A stretch of DNA of 64,000 nucleotides, taken from positions 20,026,001-20,090,000 of the forward strand of contig OX597838.1 of the NCBI GenBank assembly GCA_951406725.2. Reading direction: 5' to 3'. Position 1 is the first letter of the stretch; every line of letters begins with the position of its first letter. Under the pieces are notes generated by a model. That model was not told where the DNA came from. It worked only from the letters and a program-made list of their open reading frames with translations, and searched no databases. Shown here one piece after another: positions 13,819-41,206 of this stretch. The DNA is from Octopus vulgaris. Lineage: Eukaryota. The translations under genes were made by a program, and so were the position numbers.

Positions 13819-13913
13819 TCAAAGGTTGAAGTTTTCATGACAATTACTGACAAGGAAACGGAGGGCTGTTTGGAGCTCAAGGCCATTCATTAACGGCTCA
13901 TTCCGGAATGGTT
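13819..13913 (-). CDS. DUF3715 gene last coding exon (predicted)
   Basis: Strong acceptor TTCTTCTTCTGCAG; in phase 1 reads (E)PFRNEPLMNGLELQTALRFLVSNCHENFNL then TGA at 13821-13819. Confidence 0.65.
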
Positions 13914-14586
13914 CTGCAGAAGAAGAATTGAAAAATAAAGTCAATTAATAAATAAACAAAGAGACAAGTAAACAAAATTTAATTGGCTTTGGGTAAAAGA
14001 AAATACAGGAGGATCAGTTAATTATGATTTTATTTAACATATTCCCATCTTAGATTCACGGTACCCTTTAAGCCTGACACTTTTCGGCACCACCTCATAT
14101 ATACATATATAAATAGATGTGTGTATTTTTCCCTTGTTAATTAACAGGGAAAAAATAGATAAATAGTTACCAGGGTAGCAAAAAAATCACACAAGTAAAG
14201 AGGTTGTAACTCCTTGTTTTTAAAGGTAGAAAGAGGTTGTAACTCCTTGTTTTCAAAGGTAGAAACTTCAGGTTTACATGAAATTTTTTGTATAATATAT
14301 AAATAAATAAATGGAGTTTTGTCGGAAGTAAAAGTATTTGAATTACACCTGTGTTAAACTCTATTTATTTATATAAATATAAAAAGTTAATCCAAACAAG
14401 AAAGTACAAAAAAACACAACAACGCGAGGACGTGGAACAAATATAGTATTATTGGACGCTCAGGAAAGAAGGAAAGGAGGGTTTAATGTTTCAAGCCGAG
14501 TTCTTCGTTGGAAACATAGGAAAAGGAAAGATCCAGAGAAGGGAAGACAAAGGAAAAAAAATCGCCAACGGTACGCATGCGGTCAC

Positions 14587-14618
<32 letters not shown>

Positions 14619-15580
14619 TAGGGTCAACATATTCCCCTCTCAGATTCACACATTTATATCAGTGGTCCTTCAGTTTTTCTAAGCCCTGTAAAAGAACTCG
14701 GAAGGTTGGGCCTCCAACCAAGCCCTTCACAGTACCCTTAAAGCCAGGAGCTTTTCAGCACCCTCTTGTATATACACACAACCGACTTTAGTTTCCACTG
14801 ATTTTGAGGGAGATTTGGTGGATGGAAACTCCATCATATGTATATGGAAAGTACTTGCGCCTCCTTAGATAGTTAAGAAGGCAAATCTTTGGGCCTGAGG
14901 CTTTAGTAGAAGACATTTGCCCAAGATGCAGCATCATGGGACTGGACCTGAAACCACATGGTTAGGAAGTGAACTTCTAACCCACGTGGCCACACCTGTG
15001 CCTATAAAGTGAAAGGCTGCCTGTGGGATTAGAACCCACAACCAAGGCAATTTGGTTTGTATTATGGAATCCTACACTGAGGCAAAATTTTCAGTAATGC
15101 AATGCTTTTGTAATATGAGCTGTGCCTGAAAGGGTTTTGTGTTTGCTCCAGCTGGCCTGGCCAACAACAACAGCAACAATCTTCAGGTTTCATTTCTTAC
15201 TTCACAGAGGAAAGTGTAAGGATGACTATCCAGCCTATCAGCTAGCAATATGAATAATTACCTAGATATACTATGTCTGAATAAAAACAGAAAGACATGA
15301 TGGTCATGGTTGGAACACTTTTGATCATAAGTCTGCTAGATCAAAGCTAAACTAAGGCTAAACAACAATTATAAGTCAAACCAAGTTACTTGGGTTATTA
15401 TGAATGGTGACTTGATCAGGTGCAGGTGTGGCTGTGTGGTAAGAAGTTTGCTTCCCAACCACATGGTTCCGGGTTCAGTCCCACTGCATGGCATCTTGGA
15501 AAGTGTCTTCTACTGTAGCCTTGAGCCATCCAAAACCCTGTGATTGGATTTGGTAGATGGAAACTGAAAGAAGCCCATTG

Positions 15581-15618
<38 letters not shown>

Positions 15619-18600
15619 GAACATTGCTATTGAGAGAAACAGTGACTATGTTGAGAAGTAGGGATGTGATCCACAGAGGACCAGCTTCATTTTGATGTAT
15701 GAGGGGTCTTGAGCCTCAAAAAAAAAAAAAACATAGTACAAGACTTCTGATGATTTATTTTTCAACATAGTCCCCCTTGATGGCTGATGACTTCCTCCAG
15801 CAGTGCTGAAGCACCATTATCCCAGCGTAGAGGAACTCCTTTGTTTGAAACTCCAAGAAACTTCCTACAGCACCTATGATGTCATTGTCACTGGCAAAAC
15901 GGGGTCGATCTAATCAACTTACCCACCACTCCCAAACTTCCTGGCTTTGTGCTGAAATTGGAGACCAATATTTATGCAATTGTATGCTCAGGTATACATG
16001 TAGGATGAAAAGGGGAGATGAAATGAGGAAATGAAATAGTAAAGGATACAAACCTGAGCTGGTCATGCCCATAGAAAGCTGGCTGTTTGGAACTAAGGGA
16101 GGCGGAGGGAGAGCATTGCAGTCTTTGTTTTCCTTGAAAATTAAAAGAAATTAATCAATTAATTAACCTAAATAGCTATACAGGGTGTTTTAGTTTTAGA
16201 CAAAAAGTTAACCATAAGGGAAAAGGAGTAGTGGACATTAAATAAATCAACTCTTAAAATCAACTTCTTATAATGTTTCAAATGTTAATTAACTAACTTT
16301 TATAATGTTTTATAATAAACTAACGTTTATAATCTGTTGTGTCTGGGGAGAGTCATTTTCTTTTTGTGCCTTATAATAAGTGGAAATTTTACCGGTGAGT
16401 GTGTTACATTATAAGGCACAAAAAGAAACTGACTCCCCCCAGACACAACAGAATATGCTTCAACACTTGAACTCATATAAAGAATCTTGCAAACAAAATC
16501 CAAAAACGAAATAACGTTTATTATGTTAATTAACTAACTTTTTCAGTGACATGTATGGCTGTGTACTTAAGAAGTTGGTTTGCTAACCATGAGGTTTTGA
16601 GTTTAGTCCCACTACACAACATCTTGGGCAAATGTCTTCTACAACAGTTTGGGGTTGACTAAGAGTTTGTGACTGGAATTATTAGATGGAGAACGAAAAA
16701 GTCCCCTGTGTATGTGTGTGTGCGTGCCTGTGTGTGAAGGTGTGTAGCCTAGTGGTTAGCGAGTTGCAGTTATGATTGCAAGATCATGGTTTCAATTCCT
16801 GGACAAGGCAGTGTGTTTGTGTTCTTCATTTCAGTTTTAAATGCGCTTCCCTGTGAAGGGCTGGCATCCAGTTTTATGTGAATGCCATGATTTCAGTCAC
16901 CTAACCTTTGAGGTAGCATTATTCACAAATCTACAACAATTTGAAGAAGCACATTGTGACCAGCTGTGTATAACAACATCAGATAGTCTGATTGATAATG
17001 TGATATATATATATATATATATAAATCTTATAAGCAAATGAAAGACGTGTAATGGTGAATAAATAATACCAAAAAAATTCCCAGTTTCTCGTTTTGTTAT
17101 ACAATAACTCTGCAAATAATATTTCCATAATTCTCCATTTTAATATGTATTTTGAACTAATGCACAGCAGCAACTGAGACTACATATTGGATAGTAATAA
17201 TAGAATAATTAGCTGTGCTTCAAGAGGAAACATCTGGAATTTATCCTAACTAGCGATACTATATATATAATATACACACGCCCATACATACACACACACA
17301 CATACATACACATATATATGTGCATACATATACATACATACAAATATACGTACATATACATGTATATATATATACACACATATATATACATACATATACA
17401 CACACATGCATACACATATATGTGCATACATATACATACAAATATACGTACATATACACACATATATACATATATGTAAACACACACACACAGACACATA
17501 TACACACATACACATATATATAAATATACAATAAGATATGAAATAAATAACCCTTAGTAATATGCAATTGTTTTACAGGTTCCCCTAAAGCTGCTATCTG
17601 GTGGACATATCCAAGAATTCTTGGAAAAGAATTAGAATAAAATTGTTGGAAAAATATGCTTACAAGAATATTTTTAACAGTGCTTCTATGTCCCTGGATG
17701 GCTTTGAGACTCTTGACAACGAATTCCTTATCTATATCTTTAATCACATCAGGATTTGCATTCATATAGTCCAAGCAGCATTGATATTTTCTACAGGCTT
17801 TCTCGATGAGTCGCAAACGTTTTCTGTTTAGGAGACCAGTAAAATTCTCCAGAACACACTTGCGGCGCTCATGCAGGTTTATTTTGGTTGCCTGTAACGT
17901 TTGGAATTTCGGAGCATCATTGTTCTTCTGAGCGAGTTGCACCTCGCAGTTAATGTGATCGAGCACTTCTCGTAAAGTTACCAAACGCTCGACTGATTTG
18001 GTAGGAATCTTTCGCATAAGAATAAGGAAACAGCCTTCTGATGAGTACAGACTGTCTTTTTCTTCAGCCAGGAGAAGACTAAGGGGAATCTTCTGGTGTG
18101 GAATTCCGATGCCATTCTTTTCTGCTGCTGAGATCATGTTGGCTCGAACTTTATGCACGGCACGTCTGACCTCAGGGTCTGTAATATTAGCATCCTCTTG
18201 CATCTCTACGTTGTTTGTGCTATTGCTGTCATCATCTGAATCTTCTTGTGCCTCAGAAGAGGACAGTGAGTTATGGAGTCCCTCCTCCTCTGGTCGACGT
18301 TTCAACCATATGTTTTGCAAGAACTCTATGGAGTCAGACATAGACTTCAAAGAACTACAGATAGGAATACTGTCTAAATTAAAAGCTGCTGATTCGGAAG
18401 AAGAAGAAGGTGGCGGCATAGGTATTTTGGGAAACAAATTTGTTGGTTCGTTACCATTATTATTAATTGTTGGTGCCTGTTTCAATGCTTGCAACTGACT
18501 TTGAATTTTCTTTCGAATCTTTTTTCTTCTTGTTTTTGACATTGTATCGAATCGTGTGTCTAATGATACACCGAGGGTTTTCTTAATAATATTGTATTCA

Positions 18601-21600
18601 GAACAGCCTTGTTCGACAAACATCTGAACATATTCATCTATAGTATCAAAGGAGCTGCATTTCTTCTCCTCTTCTTCTTCCAGAGGTTCTTTCAACTGCT
18701 TGGCAGTTTGTTCCAACAGTTCTTCATAGCTTATATCTTCAACCTCCGCCTTAAGCTTTTTCTTCTTGCTGTTAGAGAAAGGAATCGAACCATCTTCTAA
18801 CCAAGAGGATGCATCACCAGGGAACGGTTGTTTCCCTCTGTAAGCTCTCCCACCCAGTTCTGATTTAGGATCCTTAGTTGACAGCCTGTCGAAAACGCTT
18901 TTACCATGTTTAGGAAACCGTTGCATTGGGCCTTCCATTTCATTTGGAATCCAAGCATTAAATTGATTAAATTTGGTAACATTGCCAACCATATTATCGT
19001 TATCACAGTTAAAGGGGTCTCCTTTATCAGAGCAGTAACCACTACTGTTGCCAGGGAAGAAATTTTCTGATTGGTTATATTGGAAACCTTTATCATAGAA
19101 GTAGTCATCAGTTTTCTCATATAGGAATCCATCAATTTTATCCTGGCAGTAGTCATCTGGATTATGGGATGGTTCGTGTTTCTTGAATGAACGACGTCGC
19201 GTTCTCTTAAAAGGATATTTATTTGACTTCCCGCGAGGATAATTTTCAGATTTTCCTCTGGGAAACTTTTTATGCTCCTCATTATAATAACCATCAGATT
19301 CCATTTCGTAGTTTTTAGAATCTTCTGGCAAGCAATTGCCCATTTTATTCGGAGGGAATGGTGCAAACTTGCCCCCATGCGGATAATGACCACGTTTTCC
19401 ATGGTAGTTCTTAGGTTTCCCTCGCTTATTGCCATCGGATCGACCACAAGAATAATTTTCCATTTGGTTATGTGGAATATCCTCAGGCATATTGTATGGG
19501 AAGCTATCATCATGTTCTGGTGGATAATTATCCATCTGATTCATTGAATAACCTTCAGGTTGAGGGAAAGGACAGTCTTCCATTCTGTTGTGTGGAAATG
19601 GCTCAGCTCTTTTTAAAGGAAAACAGTTACGCGAGAAACCTTCAGGTTGTTCAATCGAATAATTATCCATACAAGCATGTCGATATCCATCAGGCTTATT
19701 TTCCATATCCCATGGCATATCTCTTGGTGGTCTGCCAGGATTAGACTCATAGAACCTCTCATCGTTTGGATGGTCCCTTTTATCATGCCACCATCGCTCC
19801 CTTGGGTAGTTATCAAGTGATTCCGACCGTCTCAAAGGCTCAAAACTTTCTTTTGCATTCATATCACAATCATCATCCTCATCAAGTAGTTCTCCTTCTT
19901 CTAGCTCTGAGTCACAATTCTGTTCATTCTTCTCATCATCACCATCATCTTTTCCTTCTACTTCTTCTTCTTTCTTTGAAGACTTCTTTGACTTACTGCC
20001 ACTGTTTGTTCGAGCTACATTGGGCACGTCAGTCTTTTCGCTGCCCTTCTGTTTATAATTAATCACTATAGGAGGAGCATCACTGCTTCGACCAGCTTTC
20101 TCTTCTGCCTCTGTCTTCACAGGTTTCCAAAGATTCTCGGCCCATTTTTTCTCAGAGGATTTATGATGCTTTGATCGGCTAGAACTTTTTTCCCCAGATG
20201 ATCTTTTGCTGCCTGACTTCTGCTGTTCTTTCTTGGCCCACGCAGCTCTCTCTTTGTCGGACATAGCAGACGTCTTTCCCGCAGGCAGATCTCCACTGCT
20301 TTCAGAAGGCTGTGATGCCAGTTCCTTCTTGATTTTTTTCACCGATTCCAACAGTGCTTGGAGATCAGATTTATGCTGCTTCCGTTTTGAAAACTGCTTT
20401 GCTAGTTCTTTGAGGAGTTTCCTGTTAGATTCCGGCAAAGAAGCTTCTTTTAGCTTTCTTGAATTAATAGTAGATATCTGAACAGACTTTGGAATCGGAT
20501 GCGACGAGTCATCATGCTTGCTTCGTTTAGACTGTTTACTTTTTGAGGAATTGGATGATTTGCTCCTTTCTTTACTGCTTCGTCTTTTCTTGGCGCCCAT
20601 ATATGATAAAAGTTTGGATACTTCGTTATTAATATCATCTGATGCTGCATTATCAGAGAGCAGATCCACATCCTGCGAGGCATTAAGACCTTCAGTTGCA
20701 GACGTGTGATCATCAGTACTCTGCTTTGAGGTGTCAGAAATTGTACCAGCAGCTGCATCATTCTCATTATCACAATCATTACTGTCTACTGAACTCAGTT
20801 CTTTTCTAGAGGCTTTACTATACGCTGGTATAGCAATCTCGGGCATTGCATTGCTGTTAAAGGAGTCTGGTATCATTGAAGGTAAAAACAGCTCGTTTGA
20901 GGAAGATTTTTTCATTTTCACATTCTCGGCCTTTTCAGCCAAACCATCTTTTGAAGATTCCGAAGATTGAGAATGATCAAGACATGATAAAGAGGAAAGC
21001 TCCAAAGTTTTATCAGTTGGACTATAACAAGAAGACCTGCTTAATTCACATTTTTCTTTCTCCCGATCTTTAGTAGACTGCAATTCTGAAATTTCCAAAT
21101 TTGCATTTTCAGAGTCATTGGAAGCATCTGGTTTCGAATTTCTATTTGAATCTGTCTCTTTGGAAAGAGTTTCTAATTCTGAGCTACTTGCAGTCACAGC
21201 TTTTTTAGCAGGATCTGATGATGATGTTGATGGTGAAGATAATGATGATGTTGATGATTGAGCAACATTTACAGATGACATCTGGCTTTTGGGATTGATT
21301 TTGTCAGCAAACCAATCAACTAAATCATTTTGTCTTGGGACCATTAGAGGGTTAATGGGTCTGTTCAGTAAGAGTGGATTTGTTGCAGTTAAACCTGAGC
21401 CAGGAAATCCAACAGGGAATGGCATACTCTTGCTCAATAGCGACTGAGACATGCTGAGTGCGGGAGACCAGAGAAGCTGCTGTGAATGGAGGGAAGTAGC
21501 CAAATGTGAGGTTGAGGGAGGAATTGACCAGTCAATGTTTTTCAATGGGTTTGAAGATACCAAAAATGGTGACGGTGTGGGAAGCCAGTTTGGTGGAGGA

Positions 21601-24600
21601 AAGAGTTTCAAAGAAGAGAAAGCAGTGGGTGATTGAGATCTAGCTCTTTTCACTGATGTTCGTTTCTTTGCTGGTCTAAGGACTGGTATAGCCTGACCTG
21701 ACATACATTCATCTATTTGGTCGTCACCATCGTTACCAGCGTTCGTCATACTGTTCATTTCATCAGTTGTCTGGTGAGTTGTACTGTGCATATCAGTTAC
21801 CGTTTGGTTTTTCTTATTTGCTACATTTGAATCAGCAGTGGTTTTGTTGAAATCTTCTTTTCCTCCTCCTTGAATCTTCAACACAGTTTCAGTGAAATGC
21901 TTCCCCCTCTCCTCCTCAACCCCACACTTGGACTCCACAGCTGACTCACTCTTTTTTCCATTGCTGTCAGCTTGCCCTTTATTGTTCGTATCACAATTTG
22001 GGCTGACCGGTGAGTTGCTGTCCTTACTTCCTTTCACAACTTTGCGCAGCATGTCCATCATTTCATCCGATATGTTCAACGACGACACAGCTTTCGCTTG
22101 GCTCAATGTTGTCAGACTCTTCATCCAAATATGAGAAGTGTCGTTTGACGAGTCTTCGTGTCCTTTGTACTCGTAGGCACTAAACAGTTTGCCAGGATCA
22201 GAAGACGATGCTTTTTCCGAACCTTCATCTTTCGCTTCTGATGGAGAAACTGATCCAAAATCTTCATTTAAGGACTGGAAAAGGTTTTTGGCTTTTTCAT
22301 GAGATTTTTGTTGGTGAGACAAGTTTTTCTTATCTGACTCACTCTTACTGGCTTTACCACCATGCATAGAAGGCAGTTTCCAACTTGTTGCATCACAACT
22401 GTCATCATCATCATCATCATCATCATAGCTGTCAAGAGATTTTAACATCTCTTTAATTGGAGAAAGCCGATGATCATTATTATCTGAATGTGTACCGCTA
22501 GCACTTTCATCAATATACAAAGGCTTCGTAAGGTCTTCGTTGGAATTATCACTATCGTCACTATCCGCATTCATGCAGTGTCCGGGTGAGAATGCTCTCA
22601 TGCTACTGTTTCTTTCTGAATTCAATTTGCCCTCACTGCCAGGTTTCTGCTTTGAGACCAAAAGCTTCGAGTCTTCCTCTGACACTGAGTTTGTGTCATC
22701 AGATACAGATTTTCGTGGCAACATCTCTCTATAGAATCCCCAGGTTTTATGATCATTTCCAGGTTCGTTTTGTGGAACAGACTTCACTTTGGCTGGTTCT
22801 TCATTTCTCTCTGGTGAAACTGGAGAATACATTTCCCCTTTCTCAAGTGAAATAGAAGTTGAGGGCTTGAAGCCCTTAATTATTTCTTTAGAAAATTTGG
22901 CATAATCTGGGATGTTATCTTTAGAATGTGGCTTTTCTTCAAAAGAAAGTTTGGGAATTGCAGGAGTTACATCTTTATTAATAGGGATCACCGACAGCTG
23001 TTTAGGTTCATATATGGGTTTTGGTTTATCAACTGAGGTTTGGATGATACACAGATTCCATGGTTTTTTGCTGATAACTGTTTTAGAAGAGCTTGTCATA
23101 TCTTTGCTAATGTGTGCAGATACGTCTTCAATTTCCTCACTGTTGATCTTCACTGGATTATATAAGTCTGCTGGCGATTCCTGTAATAAGAGAGGTTTGC
23201 CAGATTTATTGCCATCGTTTGTTAAAGGATTACTTGACAAATCTCGGTTCATACGCAAAAGTCTTGGATCCCTTGGTAAAGAAGGGTCATGTATTGATTC
23301 CTCTTTCGATGAATGTATATCTTGTGATGCTGGTGGTTGGGAAGGTGGGCCTTTAGAGACAGCCAGAGATAGATTTTTAGCAAGTCGGGGGTCAACAAGA
23401 CCAACTTGTTCCCTAGGGTCTTTCAAAGAAACTGTTACTGAAGTAGGTATAGTTTTAGGGAGAGCAGAAGGTTTTTTAGATAAAGGTTTGTTTTTAGGAA
23501 ATATTTTTGGGTCATCCCTTACAGAAGAGAGTGGCTTGTTGGTTGATGGAATAATTTTAGGGGATTGGGGAATAATTTTGGGAGACTGTGGGGTAGATTT
23601 ATTCAGTTGAGGATTACCTTTCAATAATGGGACTGATTTCTGTAGTGATGGCATTAGCAATGGAGGTAAAGGTGGATTTACAGGTAGTAAAGGTGGAATT
23701 ACAGGTAGTAAAGGGGGTATACTCAACGGCAATATCGGATTCACATTCATTAAGGGAGGAATAGCCTTTTGTATTGGAAGAGGAAGCTTTGGTAGGGGAA
23801 GAGGCATCTTCAGAGGTGGAGGTTCCTTTTGAGAGCCAACCAATCTTGGATCTCGGAAATTAGGTGTAACCAAATTACTGAACAAATTTGGTGGTTCAAT
23901 GTCTTTGGGGGTTTCTAAGAGGAGTTTCTCCGGTTTTGGTTTCTCAAATATTGGTGGCTCCTTTTCTGCTGGGAAGATATCTTGCAATGAATCAAAAACA
24001 TTCATTTTCTCTCGAGGCGGGGATTTGGGTTTTAACCGTTTCTCTTTGTAAGCTTCAAAGGATATGACAGACTTAGGCTTTTTCGGTTCTGTGACAACAA
24101 TAGGAGGTGGCTCAATTATTGAATCAAGAAGGAGGTCAACCTTCAAAGATTGGTCTGTAGCAGGGAAAGTGGAAGGAGTTATTCCAGTGCCTTTAGTCAG
24201 TGGTTCAGCTCGAGGTGTTTTCATGATGCTTTTCGGAACAGTAGTAGCAGTAGTAGTAGTACTAGTAGTGGTACTAGCAGTAGTAGTGGTAGCTTTTGCA
24301 AGGGTACTTGTGTTGCTTTTGCTTTGAAGAGATGATGTTGATGAGAGAGGATGTGTAGATGTGGTTGGTTTTTTGCTGGGAACAGATGTAGTTGATAGTT
24401 TCTTTTCTTTGTCAGGTTTTGAAGTTGTCGAAGTAGAAGAAACCTTTTTATCTATACCAAGTTTCTTTTCCTTCGGAGGACTTTTGCTAGAAAATTTGTC
24501 TTTTGCTACTTTGATTTTCTTTTTGAAAGAATCACCCGAAGAGAGTTTCAATAGTTTGTTGGCTTTTTCACATTTACTGACAAATTTTCTTTTGGCATCA

Positions 24601-27600
24601 TTTTTCAGAGAAGTAATGTCGATTGTCGAACCGAATTCTTCTAAGTCTACCTTAGAAACTGGAGATGGTTTAGAGTGAAATTTTGAAAGTTTGATATTAG
24701 TCGCAGATTCACTTTTACTTGTCATTTGGGAAGTAGCTGAAGAAAGAGATTTTGAAAGTGATTCAGCATTTGATGTCTGTTCTGGAATGTTCAGAGCATT
24801 CATGAGGTCCTGGTGACTTCCAATCCAGTTCATCACATTAGATGTTCCTTCTCTTTTCAAATGACTTGTGATCTAAAATGAAAAAAAAAAAACACATTAC
24901 ACAGTAATTATTTAGAATTAGTGTAGCTTTTAGTTTAGAATGATTAAGTTTAATGTTTGAGGCATTGGATGTAGTGTGCAAGGGAGAACACTGGGCTGGT
25001 ATGGGCGAAGACAGCTGCGTAAAAAAGTGCTGGTCTCTAACTGTGGAGGGGAACCTGTGGAAGAGGTAGACCCAGGAATTTCAACGAAGCAAATGACAAG
25101 TGACCAAGACTTCTGGTGATTTGCTGTGCTTGGGAAGACATGTCAAGCTTAGTGGAAACATAGTCATGGAGAGTGCCAGTGACACATTAAAGGCTTTTGT
25201 GCTGGTGACACATGAAACGCATCCAGTACACTTTGTGGAGTGGTTGATGTTAGGAAGAGTATTGAGACAGAGAAACCTAGAACCTGGTGTGACTCCCCAG
25301 CTTACCAGTTCCAATCAAATTGTAAATTAGCTGAAAAATTATTCTGCATATTGATAATTTAGGTGGTTTGCTACTTTTGGGATACAAACTGGGACCCTGA
25401 CCAACTCTAGCTGGGCCGACTTGGTGAAGTGGATGGATGAGGTGGAGTGGGGAGGCGTTGAAAGAGCAGAAACCCCCGTGAGACCCCAGAAACATCACTG
25501 ATGATGTATCCCAGATCATCCAAGAGATGCATCGTGAAACTAAACAAAACTCAATGTTATAGGGTTAATTAAAGTGGGGAAGCATGTGAAACACCATTTT
25601 CAGTCACTAGCATAGAAAACTAAAAGACTATGATGAGGGCGACTGGGCTATTACCATTATCATGGTGGTGGTCTATGATTGATGGTGGTAGTGATGCTGA
25701 TGACTATGATGGTGTGATGGTAGCACTAGGTCATTGTGATAACAGTGTAATGACTAATAATAAAGATATGATGATGAAGCTTAACAAGGACTAACTGGTG
25801 CTACTCTAGCATGTGGTCTACCACAATATCCATAGTCTATTAGCTGTGAAATGATCTAATCTGGATTAGGTTAAAGGTCAGGTTTAGTATTAGGGTTTCA
25901 GGTTAGGGTCAGGTTTAGAGTGAGGGTTAAGGTTTAGGGTAAGGGTTATGATCAGGCTCATGGCTTAGGGTAATGGTTTAGAGTTAGGGTTAAGGACTGG
26001 GCTAGACGGTATGCTAAAGTGTCAATAGCCAGGTAGACGGTATGCTAAAGTGTCAATAGCCAGGTAGACGGTATGCTAAAGTGTCAATAGCCAGGTAGAC
26101 CGTATGCTAAAATGTCAATAGCCAGGTAGACCGTATGCTAAAGTGTCAATAGCCAGGTAGACCGTATGCTAAAGTGTCAATAGCCAGGTAGACCGTATGC
26201 TAAAGTGTCAATAGCCAGGTAGACCGTATGCTAAAGTGTCAATAGCCAGGTAGACCATATGCTAAAGTGGCACCAACAAACTTTAGTAAACTGGTTCATG
26301 GTTTACAAGCTTGAACATTATTTCTTTAACAAGAGGCATAATATAGAAATACAGCATGAAACTATTGTTATTGTTGCTGTGTGACAAATGGAATTATTTT
26401 ACAAGAAAACAACTGAACACAAACAGGTTAACTCACCTGCTTTATACAATCATTCAGGGCCACAACTGGCTGAAACCGTACTGAGAACATAGCAGATTTC
26501 CAGTCATCATAACCCAATTCTCTCAGTGTTGGCGTTCGCTTCGCAGGTAATTCTTCACCAAATAAAGATTTCTCTTGTTCAAGATATAAATCAGATATTG
26601 GGAAATCTAAATCTAAATATTTGTTGAATTCTGAGAGAAGATTGTTATCTTTTGATGTCATTTTGTCTCCAAATGTACTAGTTGTTGATGCGAGGCTGAT
26701 GTTGTCAAATTCTGATGCTTTTCTCCTCATTTTCTGCCGTTTCCGTCGCCGCCGATAGCCAGTCATATCAAAAGGTGCTTTCTTTTTAAGCAGGCTCCGA
26801 GACGCCATAGAGCACTTTTTCTTTTTGCGCTCACTTGGGGGTAAATACAGACTGTCAGCTTCTGACACACTGGTAGACTCAGAGTTGTCTGGGTCTAACA
26901 ACAGAAGTTCTTTCATCAGCTTTGTATTGACATCATCAATACCAACAGCATCCAGAACAGGAGGAGGTATTTCATCACACAGCATTCCTTCTTGATCTTC
27001 TAGGAGTTTGTGACTCTGAGTATCTTTAATTTGCCTCTTCCGTAGTTTATGAAGGAATGATTTATATTTCTTTTCAAATTCTGAAACCTCAGCCACTTCA
27101 GCCCTGCTGCTAGCAGGTGCCTGGGGCTGCTCCCTGGCTTCAATAGTAGATTCTACGGTATTTAACAATTTTGACAGAGTCTCAGACTGAAGAGCAGTTT
27201 CCTACAAAACAAAATTTGGTCATTAAGCAATTTATATCATTATATTAATGCAATTAACATTAAATAATAGATGAAGATGATTCAGAAATATTTATATGTA
27301 ACTTTTGTCAAACTAAAACTATTTTAAAATTCATAATAAATGAGAAAATGACAAACAAACATTCCAATTTTAAAATATTTTCATAAAAATGTGGCTTTTA
27401 TGGTCCCTTTTTTAAATTAGTTCCCAAAGATACAATCAAATCACAAAATGGATTCTAATTCATTTTGACATCTACTTCCTGTGTATTATGAATTTCTTTC
27501 CATATCACAAAAATGCCAAGTGTGTATTGCACCTATTAAAAAGGAGGCAAATAATTTTGAAATTTCAAAATGTTTTGGCTTTCAGGAGGACGTTAAGTGA

Positions 27601-29620
27601 AGATGATGACTTTAGCTTTAATAATCTTTAAAAAATAATTTAGAGCAATCCCAGAGTTTCCACTTTCATGAGATTGAAATAATTTCATCATAAAAATCCT
27701 CTGTCAGAGCTGTAAAATTTTTTTCTTTTGCCTGTTTGAATTTTGGTAATGAAACAGCTAACTTCAATACTCAATGTAATCCAGCATTCAATGATTTAGT
27801 CCAAACTTGCTGAGAATTACATGGCTGTCACATCATTTAAAATTTGTTCATTTTCATGTTATTAAAAACAACCCCCCACTCACTCAAACAGAAGGAGACA
27901 TCTGATAACGTAGAACAAATGCCTATGATTATAGGTTTGCTCTGGTGGGGCTGACTGGGATCAGTCAACATACACACAGGCCTAGTTAAACAGGCATTAC
28001 TACACAGAACAGTTTGAAGGCAACAGCAATGTACTTACTTCTGTCTGGTCTGCAACAGTTGGTAGCAGTATTGTTGTCTTTAAACCTGTTTTACCAGACA
28101 GGGCTGTGTTTTTTATTTTTGGAGTGACTCTCACCAAAGCGCCCTGAGTTGAATTTGTCAGACCACTCTTGTGTTCTTTTGATGCTTTTAGTTTAGAGTG
28201 CACAACGTCTTTTAGTTTCTTCAGATCCTCCATAGACATTTTGTTCAAAGAAGGTTTCTACAACAGGAAATATTTTTTTTTAAATACTATTTTTTAAAAA
28301 AAATGATCATTTCTAACAAAAGGTACAAGATCACAAATTTGTGAGTTAGAGGAGTACTGGTTCTCAGTGCTTAACAGGTAATTATTGACTGCTTAAAACA
28401 GGCGTCAAGGGACTTTTTTAAGCAATTACCCCAAAATATATTTATTTTCTCTGACATTACCCCACTGATTTGAAAGGAAGAAAATCATAGATTCTTTGAA
28501 TTCAAAAGGCTCATTGACTCTATTTTATTGAATCTATTTACACATCCATTACATTGGACAGATGCAGTGTTGCCAGAAAGAAAATTTCTGTCGTAACAAG
28601 CAACCCGTTTTTTTATATAATTTTACTTATGTCTAATGAGTTCTCATTACCCCCAAGAATTTCATTTTTTACCCTGGTTCACCAACCCCGCTGCCTTAGA
28701 AAAATGAAAAGCAAGGTCAAGCTCAGAGAATTAGTTTAAACAAATGCAAAGGGACTTAACTACAAATCACAAGGCATTTTAGCAGACTCTACTGATTCTG
28801 TCATAACCACCTCTTCCTCACAATGAAATAAAAATTTTGCTTTCTTACTATGAGCAGAGGTTCAAACTTTGTGTTACATTGATTACGTTGTATGACATAA
28901 CTAATAGTCCCATGTTACATAAATGAAATGAAATAACTATCAGCTGTATTTCAAAGCAGGTTGCAGACTTTAATGATAATACTAGCATCAACAATGGTGG
29001 TCAAGTAGAATTGGTTCAAAGTCAGACTTTGGTAGTTTTGACCCTGGCATACTTGAGATCAAACCCTACTCAACATTTACAGGAACGTGGACATTGAGAA
29101 ATGAGAGCAATGAGAATAATGATAAGTGTGATGTTGAGGGAAGAGAAAAAGAAGCCAAAAAAATAGAAGACAGATGAAGAGCGAAATAATGATGAAAGAG
29201 GCACAGGCAGTGACTGTGTGGTAAGAAGTTTACTTCACTACCACAAACCACACAGCTCTGAGTTCAGCCCTGCTGCATACCATGTTGGGTGAATATCTTC
29301 TACTTCAGTCCTGGACCAACCAAAGACTTGTGAGTGGATCTGGTAGATGGAAACTGAAAGAAGCCCATCATTGCCAGTGGCATGTAAAAAAGCACGATCC
29401 GAACGTGGCCGATGCCAGCGCTGCCTTGACTGGCATCCATGTCGGTGACACGTAAAAAGCACCCACTAGACTCATGGAGTGGTTGGCATTAGGAAGGGGA
29501 TCCAGCTGTAGAAACACTGCCAGATCAGACTGGAGCCTGGTGCAGCCCCCTGGCTTCCCAGACCCTGGTCGAACTGTCCAACCCATGCTAGCATGGAAAA
29601 CGGACGTTAAACTACGATGA

Positions 29621-29661
<41 letters not shown>

Positions 29662-32600
29662 GTAAGTGTGTGTATTTGTGTTTCCTTATCTTGACATCAT
29701 GTGACAGTTGTAAATAATTGTCACTGTCATACAAGCAGTGTTGTTCATTTCTGGTATTCCACAAGAACATGTCTCACCATGGGCAAATATTACCTTGCTT
29801 GGAAACAGGTGAGGGTTGGCAACAGAAAGGAAATCTAACTGTAAAAAAAAATCTGTCTCAATAAATTCTTATCTGACCCATGCAAGCATGGAAAAATGCA
29901 TAGTAAATGATGAGGATGATGAGGATGAGGAGGAGGAAACAGAAAAGTGATGAAGAACAAGCTGAAGGTAATTATCACTGTTGTGGTTGTTATTGTTGTG
30001 CTTTAGACAGAAAGAAACCTTTGGAATTAAATACAATAGTAAGAAAAGACTAAAAAATATCAAAGTAAAGATCATACCTTTGTTGATTCTTCAGGTTTTT
30101 TACTCTTTAGTTTTGAAGTTAAAGACTTTTTATTTGATGAAGGTTCAAATGGTTCGTTTTCTTGGGAACTCAACAACTGCATCATCAATTCATGCATGGA
30201 ATTGTCCTGTCCCTTTATGTGACCACTGGGGGAACTCTCAGCCTCCGAGGAACTCTTGCTTGACTTTGGAAATGTTACTGAAGTAACACTATCTGATGTT
30301 TTGCTGGAGCCTTTCTTGAACAGTTCTGATTCGAACAGATTTTTGGAGGCAGATACTGAAGCCTTCAGAAGGCTCTTCACAGAAGATTTCTTTGGCATAT
30401 CAGTGTGATGTAGAGACGGCTCTTTCTTAACTGTCGGTAATCTATCTAGAAGATCCTGTACACTCTTCTCTGTTAGTTCTATTTCAGAGCTTTTCTTTTC
30501 ACCGATTTTCGTTTCAGTAGTGGAACCGGCTGGTTTTTTCTTGTTTAAAGCAAATGGTATTGGCTTTCTAGTTTTAGCATTACTGCCACCACCACTATTA
30601 CTACTACTACTACTATTACTAATAGCAGTAGTAGTGGTAGTGATTGTAGTAGTATTTGAAGTGTCACCAATAGAATTCATGGTGCCTATGTTGGTAAATG
30701 CTGTGCCAGAACCACCTGATATTTTATTATCACAGTTGTTTAGGTAGCTATTCCTCCAGTCCTTATTCTCAAAAAACTCGGACCCACTTGCATGCCATTC
30801 AATGTTTGCAGGTTTATTCTGGGAATTTCCTTCATACTGATTGAGATTCATGTTTAAGGCAACTTCTTCTTCGTTATGCTTCCATGGATGTTGGTCCCCT
30901 AAGCACTGAGGATCAACTTCATTCTGCAACAAGGGTCGACTGTATGGAAGTGGATACCAATTCATCTGGTCAGTTGGTTCATTGCTGTATCCAGGCATTG
31001 GGTTTGGTTGACCCCAAATATGGCTGACGTCCATTTTAATGTCATCGGTGTAAAACTGGGGCTTGAACTGTCCATTGTTTTCCATAGAAAAACTGGGATT
31101 ATCTACAGGAGGTGGGCAATGTTCTGCATCTAAAGGAATTTGATCTTGACGACATTTCATTCTTGGATCTGATCCAGATCTTTGAACTAAGACTTTCTGA
31201 GAGATATCAGGAAGAGGTGGCTGTGGCCCATATCCTAGGAATAAACTTGCTAGCATTCTACATTGCTCATTTGCAGTGTCTTGAGGAAAAACATTTTGAA
31301 GCATATGGTCCCTGTCTGATAAGCCTGGACCTAACAGAGGCGGTCGTATTCCTGGAAGCATTCGAATGTTAGGCTCGAGGTTATTTGGGACATTTTTAAA
31401 GGGGACTGGATGACGAGGTCCTTTTTTCCAATCGCTTTTCTCATCAGATTTTTTGCTAGGGGGAGGACCTTTAGTTGGATCGTAGATATAAATAGATTTT
31501 GAAAGTGATCCAGGTGTAATAGTATCTGCTTTTCGTTCGTAGGTTATCACAGCATAAGGAAGACAGTGTCGAGGGCGAGGTGCGGGCATTCCCTCATCAT
31601 CATATTCATACAAGTATATCTGAAATGGTAATGAAGAGTGACATTTATTTCGGAGAAAAGTGAAGGAGCTCAAGTTATTATAAACCTCATCTTTAGAGAT
31701 GAAATTTTTTTTCACAATGTATACTCTTTTACTCGTTTCAGTCATTTGACTGTGGCCATGCTGGAGCACCGCCTTTAGTCGAGCAAATCGACCCCGAGAC
31801 TTATTCTTTGTAAGCCCAGTACTTATTCTATCGGTCTCTTTTGCCGAACCGCTAAGTGACAGGGACGTAAACACACCAGCATCGGTTGTCAAGCAATGCT
31901 AGGGGGGACAAACACAGACACACAAACACACGCATACATATATATATATATATATATATACATATATATACGACAGGCTTCTTTCAGTTTCCGTCTACCA
32001 AATCCACTCACAAGGCATTGGTCGGCCCGGGGCTATAGCAGAAGACACTTGCCCAAGATGCCACGCAGTGGGATTGAACCCAGAACCATGTGGTTGGTAA
32101 ACAAGCTACTTACCACACAGCCACTCCTGCGCCTAATGTATGATATTTGCACAAAAAATAAGTTTTGTTTGATGTATTTAGTTTTAGCATTTCTTTTCAC
32201 AATGTTGCTACCACTTGCAAGCTCCAAGTCTTTACTGATTTTTCATTAAATGACTGAAGTCTTATTCATGGATGTGGACTTCCAGAGTCCCAGACAAAGT
32301 TTTTGACTAACAATGATAATGTATGCTTACAAAATCTAATAAACAATAATTCATTTAAAAGACTCAGACATTTACAACTAAAAAGGATTAGAATAGTACA
32401 GAGACAACTACAGATTACAGCTAAGAGGGAGTTAATCTAATTAGCACATCTATTAAATATTGTCAATAACTAAATATGATTTCAGTGTTAATTCTCTCAT
32501 TGTCTATACACTTTACATTAAGTAGCTATCTTTGATACTCCTACGTCTGTTTGTACTCACATTACTGTGACCTTTGGGCAAATAAATGACATGGACACAC

Positions 32601-35600
32601 CAGTTAAAATCAGATACAGTTACACTCATTCATACATTAAAAACGTACATTTATAAACCCAGTCTAATGTTACTTATAACCACAGATTATATCTGACGCA
32701 AAAACTACTTTCCATTCCATTCAACCGTTGTTGATGCCCCCATTGAATGAACAGCTCAGCATTAGACTGGTTCTAGGCCTACCTGTCCACAATGACCAAT
32801 TATGGGTTATACAAGTAACTCTTGACGTCAAGTTCTGACTATCACCACTTAGGAGAATTTGAACACAGACTAAAAAGAGTAAGGACCTTTCTGCAAGTCA
32901 TCTCATGCAATATAAATAATTTTGCTAATCCACTGCCCAGCACTGGGACTTCGTTTTATCAACCCTAAACGGATGTAAAGCAAAGCTAACCTCAGCAGTG
33001 TTTTGAACTCAACAGTGCAGAGAGCCAGGACAAACATTGCATGCCATTCTATCCGATGCACTAATGATGCACTCAGTTCACTGCCTTCAATAACCAACAC
33101 TCTACACTGATCATTGACACAATAATTTACAGTGTAGGACTAGTCTGACAACAATTTATACTGGATACCTAGCCCATTGCTTACATCAACAGAACTTATT
33201 GCAAAATAATTTGTTCAACAGCTGTTGTCTCAAAACAATTTTCACTAGAAGTCTAGGTCTAAGCCATTATCATCATCATTTAACATCTGTCTTCCATGCT
33301 GTCATGGGTTGACAGTTTGACAAGAGATGGCAACCCAGAGGACGGTGCCAAGCTCTATTGTTTGTTTTGGCATGGTTTCTACCGCTGAACACCTTTCTTA
33401 ATCCACCCCCAAGACAATTTATATTTCAGCTCCAGATCCAATCGTTTCAAAACAATTTATATGAGAGATCTAGCTTCTGACAACAAAAATTTACAAAGAT
33501 CCTTTATTAAACTGAAATATTTGCGACTTTAAGTTTTTACAACCATCGTCCTATGGACGATTCATGCAACAACATGTGAAGAAAGCCAGAAAAATCCACA
33601 AACCTGTGAACGTTGCATTTGAATGATATGAATATCTGAGAGTTGAGGTGGTTGAAGTCCCACATGGCAGTCATAGTTTGGTGTGGGTTCAATACTAGAC
33701 ATCAGTCGTTCGTTTACAGGTTTACATTTACCCGTTAATACCTAAAATGTAATAGATGAAAAAAAAATCAACATATCAATACATATGAAAATATATGGTA
33801 ACACATGTGTGATGATAGACAGGCAGATACAAAGTGTGATGGGATGAGGGAGTGGAAAGGAGAAGGGTTTCACTTATGTAAAAAAAGATTATTATAAGTT
33901 ACCAACAGCATAATATCATACAGAACAGAAGATATCAACTACTTGGTGTATCATTTTATTAGGAGGTTGCCATAAACCAGTTCAAAGAAGGCTTTTATTC
34001 AAACGTTATTTCTGCTCGCAATCTAATCCGTTAATTACTGCTGTTCAACGATTAAGACGCATTGTTTTATATTAAATAAAGATAGTATCCATCTATCAAC
34101 GTCATTTGACATTAAGCCGCATGTTTGTACTCAATACAAAATAAGGTAAAGGCGGCGAGCTGGCAGAAACGTTAGCACACCAGGCAAAATGCGTTATGGT
34201 ATTTCGTCCACTACTGTGTCCTGAGTTCAAATTCCGCCGAGGTCAACTTTGCCGTTCATCCTTTCGGGGTCGATAAATTAAGTACCAGTTACACACTGGG
34301 GTCGATGTAATCGACTTAATCTGTTTGTCTATCCTTGTTTGTCCCCTCTATGTTTAGCCCCTTGTGGGCAATAAAGAAATAACAAAATAAGATATCGATA
34401 TTTTTATGTATTATTTATCATTGTAGAAAGGAATTAATGATAGGATATTACAATTCATAACAGAGGTAGTCAACATGATCAATTTAATCTATTGGCATCA
34501 ACATTGCTATTCATCAATTGGTCCCAATGGATAGACGAAAAATAAAAGTAAAGAATAAAATGTGTAAACTTACATTAAATACAAAAAGTGCAGTTGTTAA
34601 CTGATTTGAAATGGTTTCAACCGTCTGCAAACTGACATCTGCATGCTTGGACAAATACACACCAGAATTATGATCTCCTGTTAATAGATTTGAAGCGAAG
34701 TTGTGACAACAATAACAATATCAATTAAACACAGAACATGGTACCAAAAATATGCCGACCTTCCAGAATGTCAAAACATGTTGGACTTTCATGTTGGAAA
34801 CTATATAATAGGTTAATGAGAGAATGGGTGGTTACACACTAAATTTCTATAGCAGCTTCAGATCCTAAGTTATTGATTTGGGAGAGAAGCTGGGTTCAGC
34901 AAATAACAAATCTTGAAACAGTCTGTCAAGAGACTCCCCCAACTCATTTTTCTTACTTTACTCAGAACCAGGCTTCGTAATATTTAAATTTATTTCAGTT
35001 CTTCTGATTAATGCTCTGCCATGCTTGAAATATATGTATTGCTTCATTAATGATGAGCTGTGAAAAGTACAGATATACAAATTAGGCTATTCACTAATGT
35101 GCTAGCTTAATTTATGATTGCTATATATATAACAAATGTAGAGGCGCGTGGCTTAGTGGTTAGGGTGTTGAACTCATGACCGTAAGGTTGTGGTTTCGAT
35201 TCCTGGACCGGGCGATGCATTGTGTTCTTGAGCAAAACACTTCATGTCACGTTGCTCCAGTCCACTCAGCTGGCAAAAGTGAGTAATCCTGCAATGGACT
35301 GGCACCCCGTCCAGGTGGAAAGTTTCTACGCCACTGAAACTGGGAAACCGACCCTTATGAGCCTGGCATGGCTCGAGAAGGAACATTTATTTATTTATAT
35401 ATAACAAATGAAGATTCTATGCCATTTATTGGGGGGAGAAGTTGGTACGTGTTGTCTGAGGAACAATCACTTTAGTAAAACTAAATATCAAAGAACATTA
35501 TCTAAACTGTGTATCATAATATATTATCAACCTCAAAGAGATAAAAAGTAAAATCAACTTTAGCATGATTTGAATGCATAGTCTTGCAAGCAGCATGGTG

Positions 35601-38600
35601 ACCTCAACAGTTCTGGTGGTATGTAAAAAGCACCCAGTAAACATGGTAAAGTGGTTGGTATTAGGAAGGGCATCCAGCCATAAAAACTGTGCTAAAGTAG
35701 ATACTGGAGCATGATACAGTCCTTGGATTCACTGGATTCTGTCAAACCATCTAATCCATTACGGAGATGTACTTGCATAGCAAGTGACCTGATCTGAGAT
35801 CGTGTGCTGGAACGAAAACAATTCCAGCACAGAATTTTGTCAGTGAACAGGTCGCAGCCTCAAAGCAAAGAAAATATTTTGGCAAATTAAATTTAAATGT
35901 TGAAGTGAATCTAACGGTTTTTGTGTATTTTCTTAAATGGCTTATAAACACCTTCCATGCTGCAATTGTCATCTAATCCATATTAGCATGGAACGTGGAC
36001 GTTAAATGATGATGATGATGAAGGCAAAATATGTAACGATATATTTAACTTACCAATGATACTAAATGGCAGATTATTGGTTGTTAAACCATTTTTGGCT
36101 ATCTTTGGAACATAGGAAGGGTCTCTGATCGCATAAAATGCAATTTGATCACTAAGCTCACGGTTATGTCGACCTTCTTCTTTTAATTCAGTACGCTTGC
36201 TTCTGTAAAAGTAGAATTAAATTACATTTGAGAAAAAACAAAAAGAAAATGTGAGTTAATGAAGAAATTTTCTTTAATAAATTTTAATTAAGGTAACTAG
36301 AGCTTTACAGTTTCAAAATAGAAACACTACCATTATGAACCAAGAAGGTTAACAACAACAAAAAATTTCAACTGAGAAAACCTAGAAAGGTTTTGTTGCT
36401 CTTTATCAGTTTAACATTCTTTGATGAATGCTTTTGAAACCAACCTGCTTGCAACCATCCTTGGTTCTATGATATAAATTCCTGCTTGACTAATTTTACT
36501 AAATTTTTTACTATTTTCAAAATTACTTGAAACAAAATCCGTGTATTTAAGCAGAAAGATTAATCCCTAACCCGGCAAAGATGAGTTGTCTTCACCTAAT
36601 TTGTCTTTTTCAGAGTGCGATGAGTAAACCTGTCCAAAACATATAATTTCAAAAACAGCCACAGACAATTTTATATGTCAATCAGCGGTTTTACTCTTTT
36701 ACTTGTTTCAGTCATTTGACTGCGGCCATGCTGGAGCACCGCCTTTAATCGAGCCCAGGACTTATTCTTTTTGTAAGCCCAGTACTTATTCTATTGGTCA
36801 CTTTTGCCGAACCGCTAAGTAACGGAGACATAAACACACCAGCATTGGTTGTCAAGCAATGCTAGGGGGACAAACACACATACGCATATATATATATATA
36901 CGATGGGCTTCTTTTCAGTTTCCGTCTACCAAATCCACTCACAAGGCTTTGGTCAGCCCGAGGCTATAGTAGAAGACACTTGCCCAAGGTGCCACGCAGT
37001 GGGACTGAACCCAGAACCATGTGGTTGGTAAGCAAGCTACTTACCACACAGCCACCACTGCTTCTATTTATTTTATTTTATTTTTTCTAACAAATTATGC
37101 CCAGATGTTGAGCTGAGAAGATGACAGTGAGTATGAACCTTCTATTAGAAGCTTGGATACATCAGATGAGAGTGCAAGCTCGTCTGATAATGGCTATTCT
37201 CTCTCAAGTGAGGAGGATAGATGAATTTGGTGCTGGAAGAATGCATGCTTCTTCCACCACCATGCTTCCCATTCACTAGAAATCTTGGAATATCAATTAA
37301 TCAAGGCACAGCTGGTATGATTTCTTTGGATTTTTTTAGTATTTTTTGTGACGAGAAAATTATTGATCAAGTTGTGCACATAACTATTTTATTGACATTT
37401 ACTTTTGGTTATGAAAATTGAAAACAAAATAAATAAATATATATATATAAAAAAAGAGTTTTGAGAAGGCATGCTAAAAAAAAGAGTAAAATAAATGTGT
37501 AATTCCCCATTACTTTTGATGATAAAGTTGGATAATAAAAAGCAATCAGTAAAAAATATTTTTAAAATACGGGAAGACGAGTTATCTTGTTTTTGCCAAA
37601 AAATGGCATCTTCAAAATAAAATTTCAAATAAAATATTGGAAATAGATAAAAACAAAAGTTATTTCCATAATCAGCACTAAAAATACTATTAGAAAAAGC
37701 AATAAAAAAATTCGTCTGAAATTGAAATGTTTTCTACAAAAAAAGTCGCTGGAGAAGGGGTTAAACGTGCAGTTGTCTGAACAAACATATTTGTCTGGTC
37801 AAACACATGGTGATCTAAGTATATTCGTCTCAAACACTTGTCTAATGAAATACATCTGTCTGATTAAACACATCTATCTAACACACGTCTGACTAAACAG
37901 ACTTGTCTCTCTTGACTTTAGCAATGTTACAGCTAAGCTTTTCATGAAATTATAAACAGTTATTTTACACAGAGAACTATTTAGTGTTCTTCCAAAATAC
38001 AAGAAGTACAAATTTTAGTAAAAACACAATACAGCTACGATAAAATAGAGAGGCAAATGTCTTTAACGAGCCTACAATCTTATATAATCTTTCTGATTAG
38101 ATGTGTGTGTGTGCATGCATAAGTTCAAGTCATTATAACATGACATTACATTTCAACAGGCAAACAATTGTCATTATGATTAAGTTGAAAGTTTTAATTT
38201 CACTAATCATCTAATTCTTGATTATTTTAAAAGTCAAAACACAAAATGATTGATCTAGTGTTTTATCATGTCTATTACCAACTCAAAATATATAAGCCGA
38301 TGCTTTCTTAAACCTATTTCATTGTGAATATTTATCTAATGCAAATGATTGAAAGAGAAATTAAAATTCCCCTGAAGTTCTTTTGCCTTAAGTAAAATCA
38401 AATGCTTTTTTACAGATCTATAAATAATAATAAAAGGTAAAATATATTTTTTTTTTTAAATACTAAAGTATGCTCAAACCTATAGTCTTGTTCCAGTTCT
38501 GTATTTCGGACTGAGTGAATCGCTTGAATCTGCCAAGGCCCACAATAATTTTGGTCAAGGTAGGACCGAGTAACGTTTGCAAGTATTTCTTTTGCATCTC

Positions 38601-41167: not shown

Positions 41168-41206
<39 letters not shown>

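Follow-up and report, generated by a model that had tools for sequence, protein, structure and literature searches.

A DUF3715 gene in the octopus window

The window analysed here (64,000 nucleotides of Octopus vulgaris, positions 20,026,001 to 20,090,000 of contig OX597838.1, assembly GCA_951406725.2) contains a minus-strand gene of 11 exons. It encodes a protein of about 3,500 amino acids (aa) with an N-terminal DUF3715 pseudo-PARP domain, a long middle carrying short motifs, and a C-terminal helical domain (Table 1). A sequence-only reading of the window had placed nine short motifs in one polypeptide and proposed that they join DUF3715-dependent transposon silencing to premature transcription termination and to HP1. 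All nine peptides were reproduced by translation of the minus strand. The large open frame retrieved P0001, an uncharacterised Octopus sinensis protein of 3496 aa (99% identity over the large exon), and tblastn of P0001 against the window aligned it in 11 segments between 42509 and 13822 (85-100% identity, intron overhangs included), with splice sites inspected. A single contig of run X1 splices exons 36204-36053, 31619-30078, 28250-28038, 27200-26437 and 24872-22434 together and carries one DUF3715 exon, DPR1, PVVAL, ISFEAYKEKR and DPR2-5, and a contig of run X3 reproduces part of this joining; the same open frame (17262-24872, minus strand) continues through LEEGEL and SVFDRL. The transcript evidence consists of contigs from four runs in three studies, their RNA type being guessed since none is recorded as RNA, and the joins are spliced. 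Because the P0001 mapping and the spliced X1 and X3 contigs place them on one polypeptide, all nine motifs are in frame within one spliced gene.

Table 1. Features of the gene in the window (protein positions refer to P0001)
Feature	Coordinates	Strand	Basis
Coding span, 11-exon gene, about 3,500 aa (P0001)	13822..42509	-	tblastn, splice sites, spliced contigs
Exons 1-5, approximate	42509-42450, 38631-38482, 36204-36053, 34672-34571, 33741-33601	-	
Exons 6-8, approximate	31619-30078, 28250-28038, 27200-26437	-	
Exons 9-11, approximate	24872-17664, 16132-16055, 13920-13822	-	
FNIPK, F/YxIP[KR] motif, aa 9-13, directly ahead of pseudo-PARP	42471..42485	-	homologue count
DUF3715/RDTS pseudo-PARP, exons 2-6, Pfam aa 76-222, ends approximate	31520..38631	-	Pfam, 6TL1
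DPR1, aa 352, position-conserved DPR past DUF3715, likely WDR82-docking	31161..31169	-	orthologue positions
M[MTI]GY and basic run, aa 933, like a nuclear localisation signal, upstream of HP1 box	26731..26766	-	5/14 full-length orthologues and partial P0023
Extended PxVxL (L..LG...W..A.....FQP.V.L.D), aa 1013-1038, predicted HP1 chromoshadow ligand	26449..26526 (PVVAL 26455-26469)	-	conservation and model
ISFEAYKEKR, [IL]S[FL]xxY[KR] motif	24036..24065	-	9/14, shuffle mean 0.5
Four-DPR cluster, aa 1380-1576	23262..23852 (23844-23852, 23412-23420, 23385-23393, 23262-23270)	-	translation; P0003
IPVL	21678-21689	-	8/14 by looser pattern
DWFADK, aa 2224	21300..21317	-	5/14; shuffles 0; identical in P0003
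LEEGEL in acidic patch, likely ARS2 zinc-finger ligand	19887..19904	-	orthologues, motif class
SVFDRL, Octopus-restricted, no family support	18882..18899	-	1/14
C-terminal conserved helical region (core aa 3284-3439, approx. 18131-17664)	17664..18668	-	common to mollusc orthologues

DUF3715 (PF12509) is the sole Pfam family above cut-off in P0001 (aa 76-222, 87.8 bits against a cut-off of 28.5, E 9e-25), and the TASOR structure 6TL1 matches the same domain at E 9e-38, in agreement with the pseudo-PARP assignment of the sequence-only reading. The H-Y-E triad appears from the alignment to be degenerate. Its Glu position, assigned after PARP1, is presumably Q201. In the 6TL1 alignment with the numbering of 10.1101/2020.03.09.974832 (like the other papers cited here, drawn on for the portions of text that were accessible), the NAD-binding His becomes Y94 and the Tyr is retained as Y128; the loop tyrosine Y305 of TASOR is also retained, as Y207, the residue correspondence being an inferred mapping. 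The F/YxIP[KR] motif precedes the domain in 128 of the 134 homologues whose match spans the profile start, on the TASOR and TEX15 sides alike, a count that is not independent since the motif belonged to the search profile. It resembles the FxxP docking motif of PP4. The literature search found no report tying FxxP and PP4 to TASOR, and a lead from SPT6-SETD2 for FxIP yielded no motif definition. A model of the N-terminal domain, made from an alignment of only three rows, had a predicted local distance difference test score (pLDDT) of 39. Order-promoting residues make up 24% of the middle of the protein, compared with 32% and 37% of the terminal domains, and the middle is likely to be disordered.

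The family was sampled with a profile from three mollusc N-termini. It matched 532 representatives (E up to 0.001), of which the best 150 were used; names were obtained for 19 of the 20 representatives looked up, in addition to 8 earlier proteins. An unrooted IQ-TREE quick tree of 51 hand-picked DUF3715 domains separates the SPOC-bearing proteins (18) from TEX15, the mollusc proteins and other non-SPOC proteins (33) with a Shimodaira-Hasegawa-like approximate likelihood ratio (SH-aLRT) of 99, and a FastTree of 148 domains, isoforms and short matches excluded, gives the same division. In the smaller tree the group that holds the octopus protein comprises 14 molluscs together with the annelid Owenia (SH-aLRT 98), with branching inside the TEX15/non-SPOC side unresolved, so that the tree gives no one-to-one orthology with TEX15. 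The SPOC-DomI profile scored P0001 at -3.5 bits, against 52-293 bits for TASOR-side proteins containing the region, and Pfam found neither SPOC nor the TEX15 domain (PF15326) in P0001; local TEX15 repeat profiles were also without a match. Both marks of a TASOR-like protein are missing, in that no SPOC-DomI follows the DUF3715 domain and the domain lies outside the TASOR branch. The scallop has a separate SPOC-bearing TASOR-like gene (P0099). A genome profile search for a paralogue of the TASOR type (P0077, PF24630) and for Periphilin (PF25234) was blank but uninformative, as it also missed the DUF3715 of the window. By these sequence comparisons the octopus protein is placed on the TEX15 side of the family and is not TASOR-like; with neither SPOC-DomI nor TEX15 domains, it belongs to neither type. 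The gastropod Babylonia has two paralogues of the gene, P0061 and P0062.

A 158-position helical domain (aa 3284-3439) ends the protein in all 14 full-length mollusc orthologues, the set being defined by this domain: Octopus, Mytilus, Potamilus, Solemya, Argopecten, Dreissena, Mercenaria, Patella, Lottia, Aplysia, Babylonia (two), Littorina and one more. It is absent from the TEX15- and TASOR-type proteins of the set. The domain was predicted with pLDDT mostly 80-95, the model used in fold searches having a mean of 69. With that model Foldseek gave no match at E up to 0.001 and a search of the PDB returned generic helical matches only (Z up to 8.3 over about 55 residues); Pfam has no family for the domain, and the ESM Atlas gave no usable match for its P0002 equivalent. 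The lack of a clear fold match does not establish a new fold. The idea, formed by eye, that it is a distant TEX15 domain was rejected on hidden Markov model comparison (hhalign probability 0.2-0.6%).

Conserved motifs of the protein body

The sequence-only reading had cautioned that short motifs can arise by chance in a protein of this length, and within P0001 the caution is partly borne out. Bare PxVxL is at chance level (0.9-1.3 expected per shuffle), and E[DE]GE[ILV], SLxxY[KR] and [VI]FxRL each have P of about 0.01-0.05 for patterns chosen post hoc. Local shuffling gave at least five DPR in 7 of 5000 trials with 100-aa windows and 4 of 5000 with 200-aa windows, and four DPR within 200 aa in none of 5000. 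Because the single-protein P values were weak or at chance, conservation was used to decide which motifs are real. Orthologue counts were compared with 60 shuffles per group, the patterns having been set after viewing the sequences and the rows being related.

DPR is present in 14/14 mollusc orthologues (shuffle mean 6.7), with at least two copies in 13/14 (1.8). In the non-terminal parts of these proteins it ranks first of 8000 tripeptides by over-representation, with 56 copies against 12.3 expected from dipeptides, and 42 copies are left after the tandem-rich Mercenaria row is dropped; neither DPK (9 against 10.4 expected) nor EPR (2 against 7.2) is enriched. The first DPR lies 38-187 aa past DUF3715 in every one of the 14, and DPR1 of octopus lies about 116 aa past it. 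A DPR stands 80-243 aa past the domain in 26 of 29 TEX15-domain proteins, 24 of these reading DPRL, and somewhere in the chain in 27 of them (shuffle mean 5.9); one of the 29 is named (lizard TEX15), the rest being assigned by tree and repeat profiles. DPR also occurs in 38/50 SPOC-side proteins (15.8) and in 12/15 other non-SPOC proteins (5.4). The copy number is 59 in the 14 mollusc proteins versus 30 in the 29 TEX15-domain proteins.

The cluster of four DPR had been named as the strongest signal. Its density did exceed that of all shuffles, but at its position the cluster is found only in Octopus and its close relative P0003, which is 35% identical and probably another cephalopod; three of the four copies align there and the fourth lies nearby unaligned. 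P0003 spans the large exon only, with DPR1 and PVVAL outside the comparison. As judged from orthologue positions, the deeply conserved DPR is the single copy past DUF3715 and not the four-copy cluster.

Conserved DPR outside folded domains is what the sequence of a WDR82 ligand would show, and the DPR motifs probably bind WDR82. The sequence-only reading had listed PNUTS with ZC3H4 and SETD1 as proteins that use this motif. Symplekin, SET1A and ZC3H4 depend on DPR to bind WDR82 (PMC13710762, PMC9911701), but PNUTS contacts WDR82 through other grooves without DPR (PMC13710762). The DPR of TASOR has already been remarked on (PMC13710762), TASOR and WDR82 co-purify, and WDR82 is required for chromatin occupancy by HUSH and for LINE1 silencing (PMC10915761). 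The post-DUF3715 DPR of TEX15 was not found in print, preprint supplements and figures (e.g. Schopp 2023 Fig. 2) being outside the coverage of the search and possibly bearing on novelty. A search for TEX15 with WDR82 found only HUSH papers, and Wdr82, Srrt and Cbx were not found in the readable files of the TEX15 immunoprecipitation-mass spectrometry supplements of PMC7385494.

LEEGEL fits the class of motif that binds the ARS2 zinc finger and is near EVEEGEL of NCBP3 (10.1101/2022.01.19.476877). The pattern E[DE]GE[ILV] occurs in 8/14 mollusc orthologues (shuffle mean 0.6), and the annelid homologue P0029 has three copies of an E[DE]GE-type motif. The conserved motif lies in an acidic context and the octopus ARS2 zinc finger is itself conserved, with 47 of 52 residues identical to solved ARS2 chains; it is probable on these grounds that the protein also binds ARS2. 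The SLxxY pattern, [ILVM][ST][FLI]xxY[KR], is likewise shared well beyond shuffles (Table 1), and literature searches with such strings led to unrelated papers only. Between Octopus and P0003, LEEGEL is identical and ISFEAY agrees at 5 of 6 residues, with flanks at 38-53%, and SVFDRL is lost. The [VI]FxRL pattern was found in 1/14 orthologues (shuffle mean 0.4), and SVFDRL is absent in P0003, P0008 and P0022; nothing here supports it as a motif of the wider family. Of the five motif types put forward, DPR, EEGEL, SLxxY and extended PxVxL are conserved against divergent flanks, and these motifs are almost certainly under selection.

The predicted HP1 contact

PVVAL is the end of an extended 26-residue motif that occurs in cephalopod, bivalve and gastropod orthologues, with PxVx[LVIM] in the extended setting in 11/14 (shuffle mean 2.8). 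A profile of this HP1 box made without Octopus scores the octopus copy weakly, at 7 bits. A block of MxGY and basic residues followed by the box is also found in Mytilus, Solemya, Argopecten and P0023, and the octopus box holds the same position past that block, in support of the match despite its weak score.

The octopus genome has two chromoshadow loci. One of these, P0181, complete in a single exon, was modelled as a dimer with octopus aa 1005-1042. The model scored 0.80 against 0.02 for the best of three controls, with at least 97% of contacts agreeing between runs and a partner pLDDT of 82; the score mark was reached by 51/78 solved complexes and 2/108 mismatched pairs, a calibration that does not extend to peptides. 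V1034 is set in the dimer groove with a C-terminal strand on either side of it, and one protomer is also contacted by F1030 and W1021; these upstream contacts would explain why conservation of the motif extends beyond PxVxL. The extended motif is thus predicted to lie across the HP1 chromoshadow dimer, as the sequence-only reading had expected of PVVAL, and the model makes HP1 binding probable. The literature search found no report of TASOR2 with HP1 and PxVxL. Locus L001:1426-1659 (G000 C10) encodes a diverged HP1 chromoshadow domain ending at a conserved Trp, and the canonical one is split by an intron in L002.

Possible mechanism and alternatives

What might such a protein do? The reading that we favour, at a probability of about 0.5, is that it is a DUF3715 scaffold on the TEX15 side of the family whose motifs dock WDR82/ARS2 and HP1, thereby coupling aberrant transcription to heterochromatin silencing. 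It starts from gene structure, layout, tree and conservation, all of which are observed. We infer that DPR copies would fit into the DPR-binding pocket of WDR82 where RNA polymerase II (Pol II) is slowed or terminating, a mode of docking that would allow PNUTS-PP1 to sit on that same WDR82 and would compete with ZC3H4. EEGEL would bind the zinc finger of ARS2 on capped RNA, a site taken by a single partner at a time, and the predicted HP1 contact would tie the locus to heterochromatin. The pseudo-PARP may supply the silencing activity, as for TASOR and TEX15; the DUF3715 domain of TEX15 rescues TASOR silencing (PMC10578480), and it is because of TASOR and TEX15 (PMC10578480, PMC7385494) that we suggest transposon silencing by the mollusc protein. 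The C-terminal domain, in place of the TEX15 domains or of SPOC-DomI-PIN, likely binds a lineage-specific partner. By analogy with HUSH, WDR82 would be a handle for recruitment to Pol II and not a sign of termination activity of the protein itself, which is the most economical account. The chances that the whole chain holds, silencing included, are about even.

Several points weigh against this reading. The motif patterns are post hoc and the orthologues are kin, which makes the counts non-independent tests. DPR has only three residues, and the WD40 protein CstF-50 reads the similar DPK (PMC13710762); the annelid homologue P0029 has no DPR, the EGE motif is missing in 6/14 orthologues and the HP1 box in 3/14 full-length models. 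The order of motifs varies, as SLxxY and the DPR cluster come after the HP1 box in Octopus and before it in bivalves. PxVxL bound to HP1 is a textbook complex, so that the high score may stem from similarity to solved structures; peptides are outside the calibration, and the HP1 modelled is the more diverged of the two octopus loci. The C-terminal domain has no sequence link to the TEX15 domains (hhalign probability <1%). Lastly, none of the 29 TEX15-domain proteins has EGE or SLxxY, and their matches to the HP1-box pattern do not exceed chance (5/29, shuffle mean 4.1), because of which the full motif hub is not family-wide.

One could instead suppose that the protein is a general scaffold for Pol II 3'-end formation or nuclear RNA sorting that binds WDR82, ARS2 and HP1 but acts on ordinary genes, non-coding RNAs or gene clusters and not on transposons. 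DPR and EEGEL are common to many RNA-processing factors, including PCF11, NCBP3, ZC3H18 and SCAF1 (PMC13710762, 10.1101/2022.01.19.476877), HUSH is also found on H3K9me3-negative termination sites (PMC10915761), mouse TEX15 regulates odorant-receptor gene choice (10.64898/2026.05.27.728302), and contigs of all four runs from the three studies cover the gene. Such a role seems unlikely, however, because the vertebrate DUF3715 domains assayed so far silence transposons (PMC10578480) and the conservation of the HP1 box suggests a link to heterochromatin. The hub proposed by the sequence-only reading was of another kind, a Restrictor-like terminator that joins WDR82 and ARS2 to end transposon transcripts prematurely. 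ZC3H4 reportedly combines DPR with an ARS2-type motif. It has multiple DPR (PMC13710762), and the expanded copy number in molluscs would fit, but Pfam shows neither a CCCH zinc finger nor an RNA-binding domain in the octopus protein, the DPR-WDR82 contact of SET1A supports expression (PMC9911701), HUSH itself is dispensable for termination, and loss of MPP8 causes no read-through at HUSH-bound termination sites (PMC10915761). We therefore regard the termination step as distinctly unlikely; of that hub, the conserved motifs and the HP1 model are what survive, and the Restrictor-like step and the claims for PNUTS and SVFDRL are not supported.

The motifs might also be selected for other partners, DPR for a CstF-50-like WD40 protein and the W-helix-PxVxL for a reader other than HP1, or DPR might sequester WDR82 against termination. 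CstF-50 does bind DPK (PMC13710762), several gastropod variants read PxVxV instead of PxVxL, and SET1A antagonises Restrictor via DPR (PMC13710762, PMC9911701). These ideas are very unlikely given that DPK is not enriched, that the model sets the entire extended motif on HP1, and that TASOR co-purifies with WDR82 (PMC10915761). Chance in a low-complexity protein of 3,500 aa, which holds for bare PxVxL in one protein and probably for SVFDRL, is hardly tenable as a general account; the shuffles, the tripeptide ranking and conservation across classes exceed it and refute it for DPR, EEGEL, SLxxY and extended PxVxL.

Among known proteins the octopus protein would, by analogy, work most like TEX15 and TASOR. 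With vertebrate TEX15, a silencing effector guided by PIWI-interacting RNA, it shares the side of the tree, an N-terminal FxIP and DUF3715, the lack of SPOC, a very long body and a DPR soon past the domain; unlike TEX15 it lacks PF15326, ends in another domain and has EEGEL, SLxxY, an extended PxVxL and multiple DPRs, all missing from the TEX15 set. It shares the pseudo-PARP (6TL1) with TASOR and TASOR2 of HUSH and with invertebrate TASOR-like proteins, and DPR with most SPOC-side proteins, but it has no SPOC-DomI, alpha/beta or PIN domain and sits on a separate branch, and molluscs have their own TASOR-like gene. Invertebrate DUF3715-only proteins (the non-SPOC clades of Schopp 2023; the cnidarian 'truncated Tex15' of 10.64898/2026.09.07.749791) likewise carry DUF3715 without SPOC or TEX15 domains, but the accessible parts of those sources do not describe the motif set, C-terminal domain or partner. 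DPR motifs recall the ZC3H4-WDR82 Restrictor, to which the octopus protein is not homologous; it lacks CCCH zinc fingers and has a pseudo-PARP and an HP1 box. The TASOR-WDR82 link (PMC13710762, PMC10915761) and the invertebrate DUF3715-only proteins have already been published.

What TEX15 and the DUF3715 domain do at the molecular level is described as unknown in PMC10578480 and PMC7385494. A conserved DPR beside DUF3715 would, if mouse TEX15 has it, offer a three-residue handle on whether silencing directed by PIWI-interacting RNA (piRNA) shares the WDR82 route of HUSH. A broader proposal holds that the DUF3715 family as a whole inherited, alongside its pseudo-PARP, a DPR that docks on WDR82; TEX15 would then be loaded on transcribing Pol II through WDR82, as HUSH is, and the mollusc protein would be a single-chain silencing hub. 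This proposal is tentative and more doubtful than the reading we favour. For work on invertebrates, the protein provides a specific candidate for silencing mollusc transposons co-transcriptionally; four of its motifs can be mutated independently, and it has an uncharacterised domain as well. If the broader proposal is true, a single polypeptide senses nascent capped RNA through ARS2 and WDR82 and nucleates heterochromatin directly through HP1, a job done by several subunits in HUSH and in the mammalian nuclear piRNA pathway.

Further observations concern the motifs and the gene. A motif of the type [IVT]TS[KR]x[IV]KDPRL past DUF3715, seen in most of the 29 TEX15-domain proteins (e.g. P0007 aa 419-440), was not found in print. 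DPR has expanded in tandem in Mercenaria (P0173/P0034 aa 390-512, 14 copies) and in the TASOR-side protein P0090 (22 copies), which suggests selection for multivalency. DxD[LYMF]R occurs in 11/14 mollusc orthologues and 30/50 SPOC-side proteins (P0004, P0024, P0026 and others), far over shuffles, and is absent in the octopus protein. IPVL and DWFADK are conserved yet were not in the list of the sequence-only reading. A single coding exon of 7.2 kb (17664-24872, minus strand) encodes two thirds of the protein. Exon 10 extended past its donor (16040-16132, minus strand) equals the C-terminus of the O. bimaculoides protein P0002, so that two alternative C-termini are possible. In the introns of the window (e.g. 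29370-29690, 31720-32140, 34150-34380) lie interspersed repeats of high copy number, which contigs of all four runs cover very deeply, and an intron repeat family of the window was found again in L001, L003 and L004.

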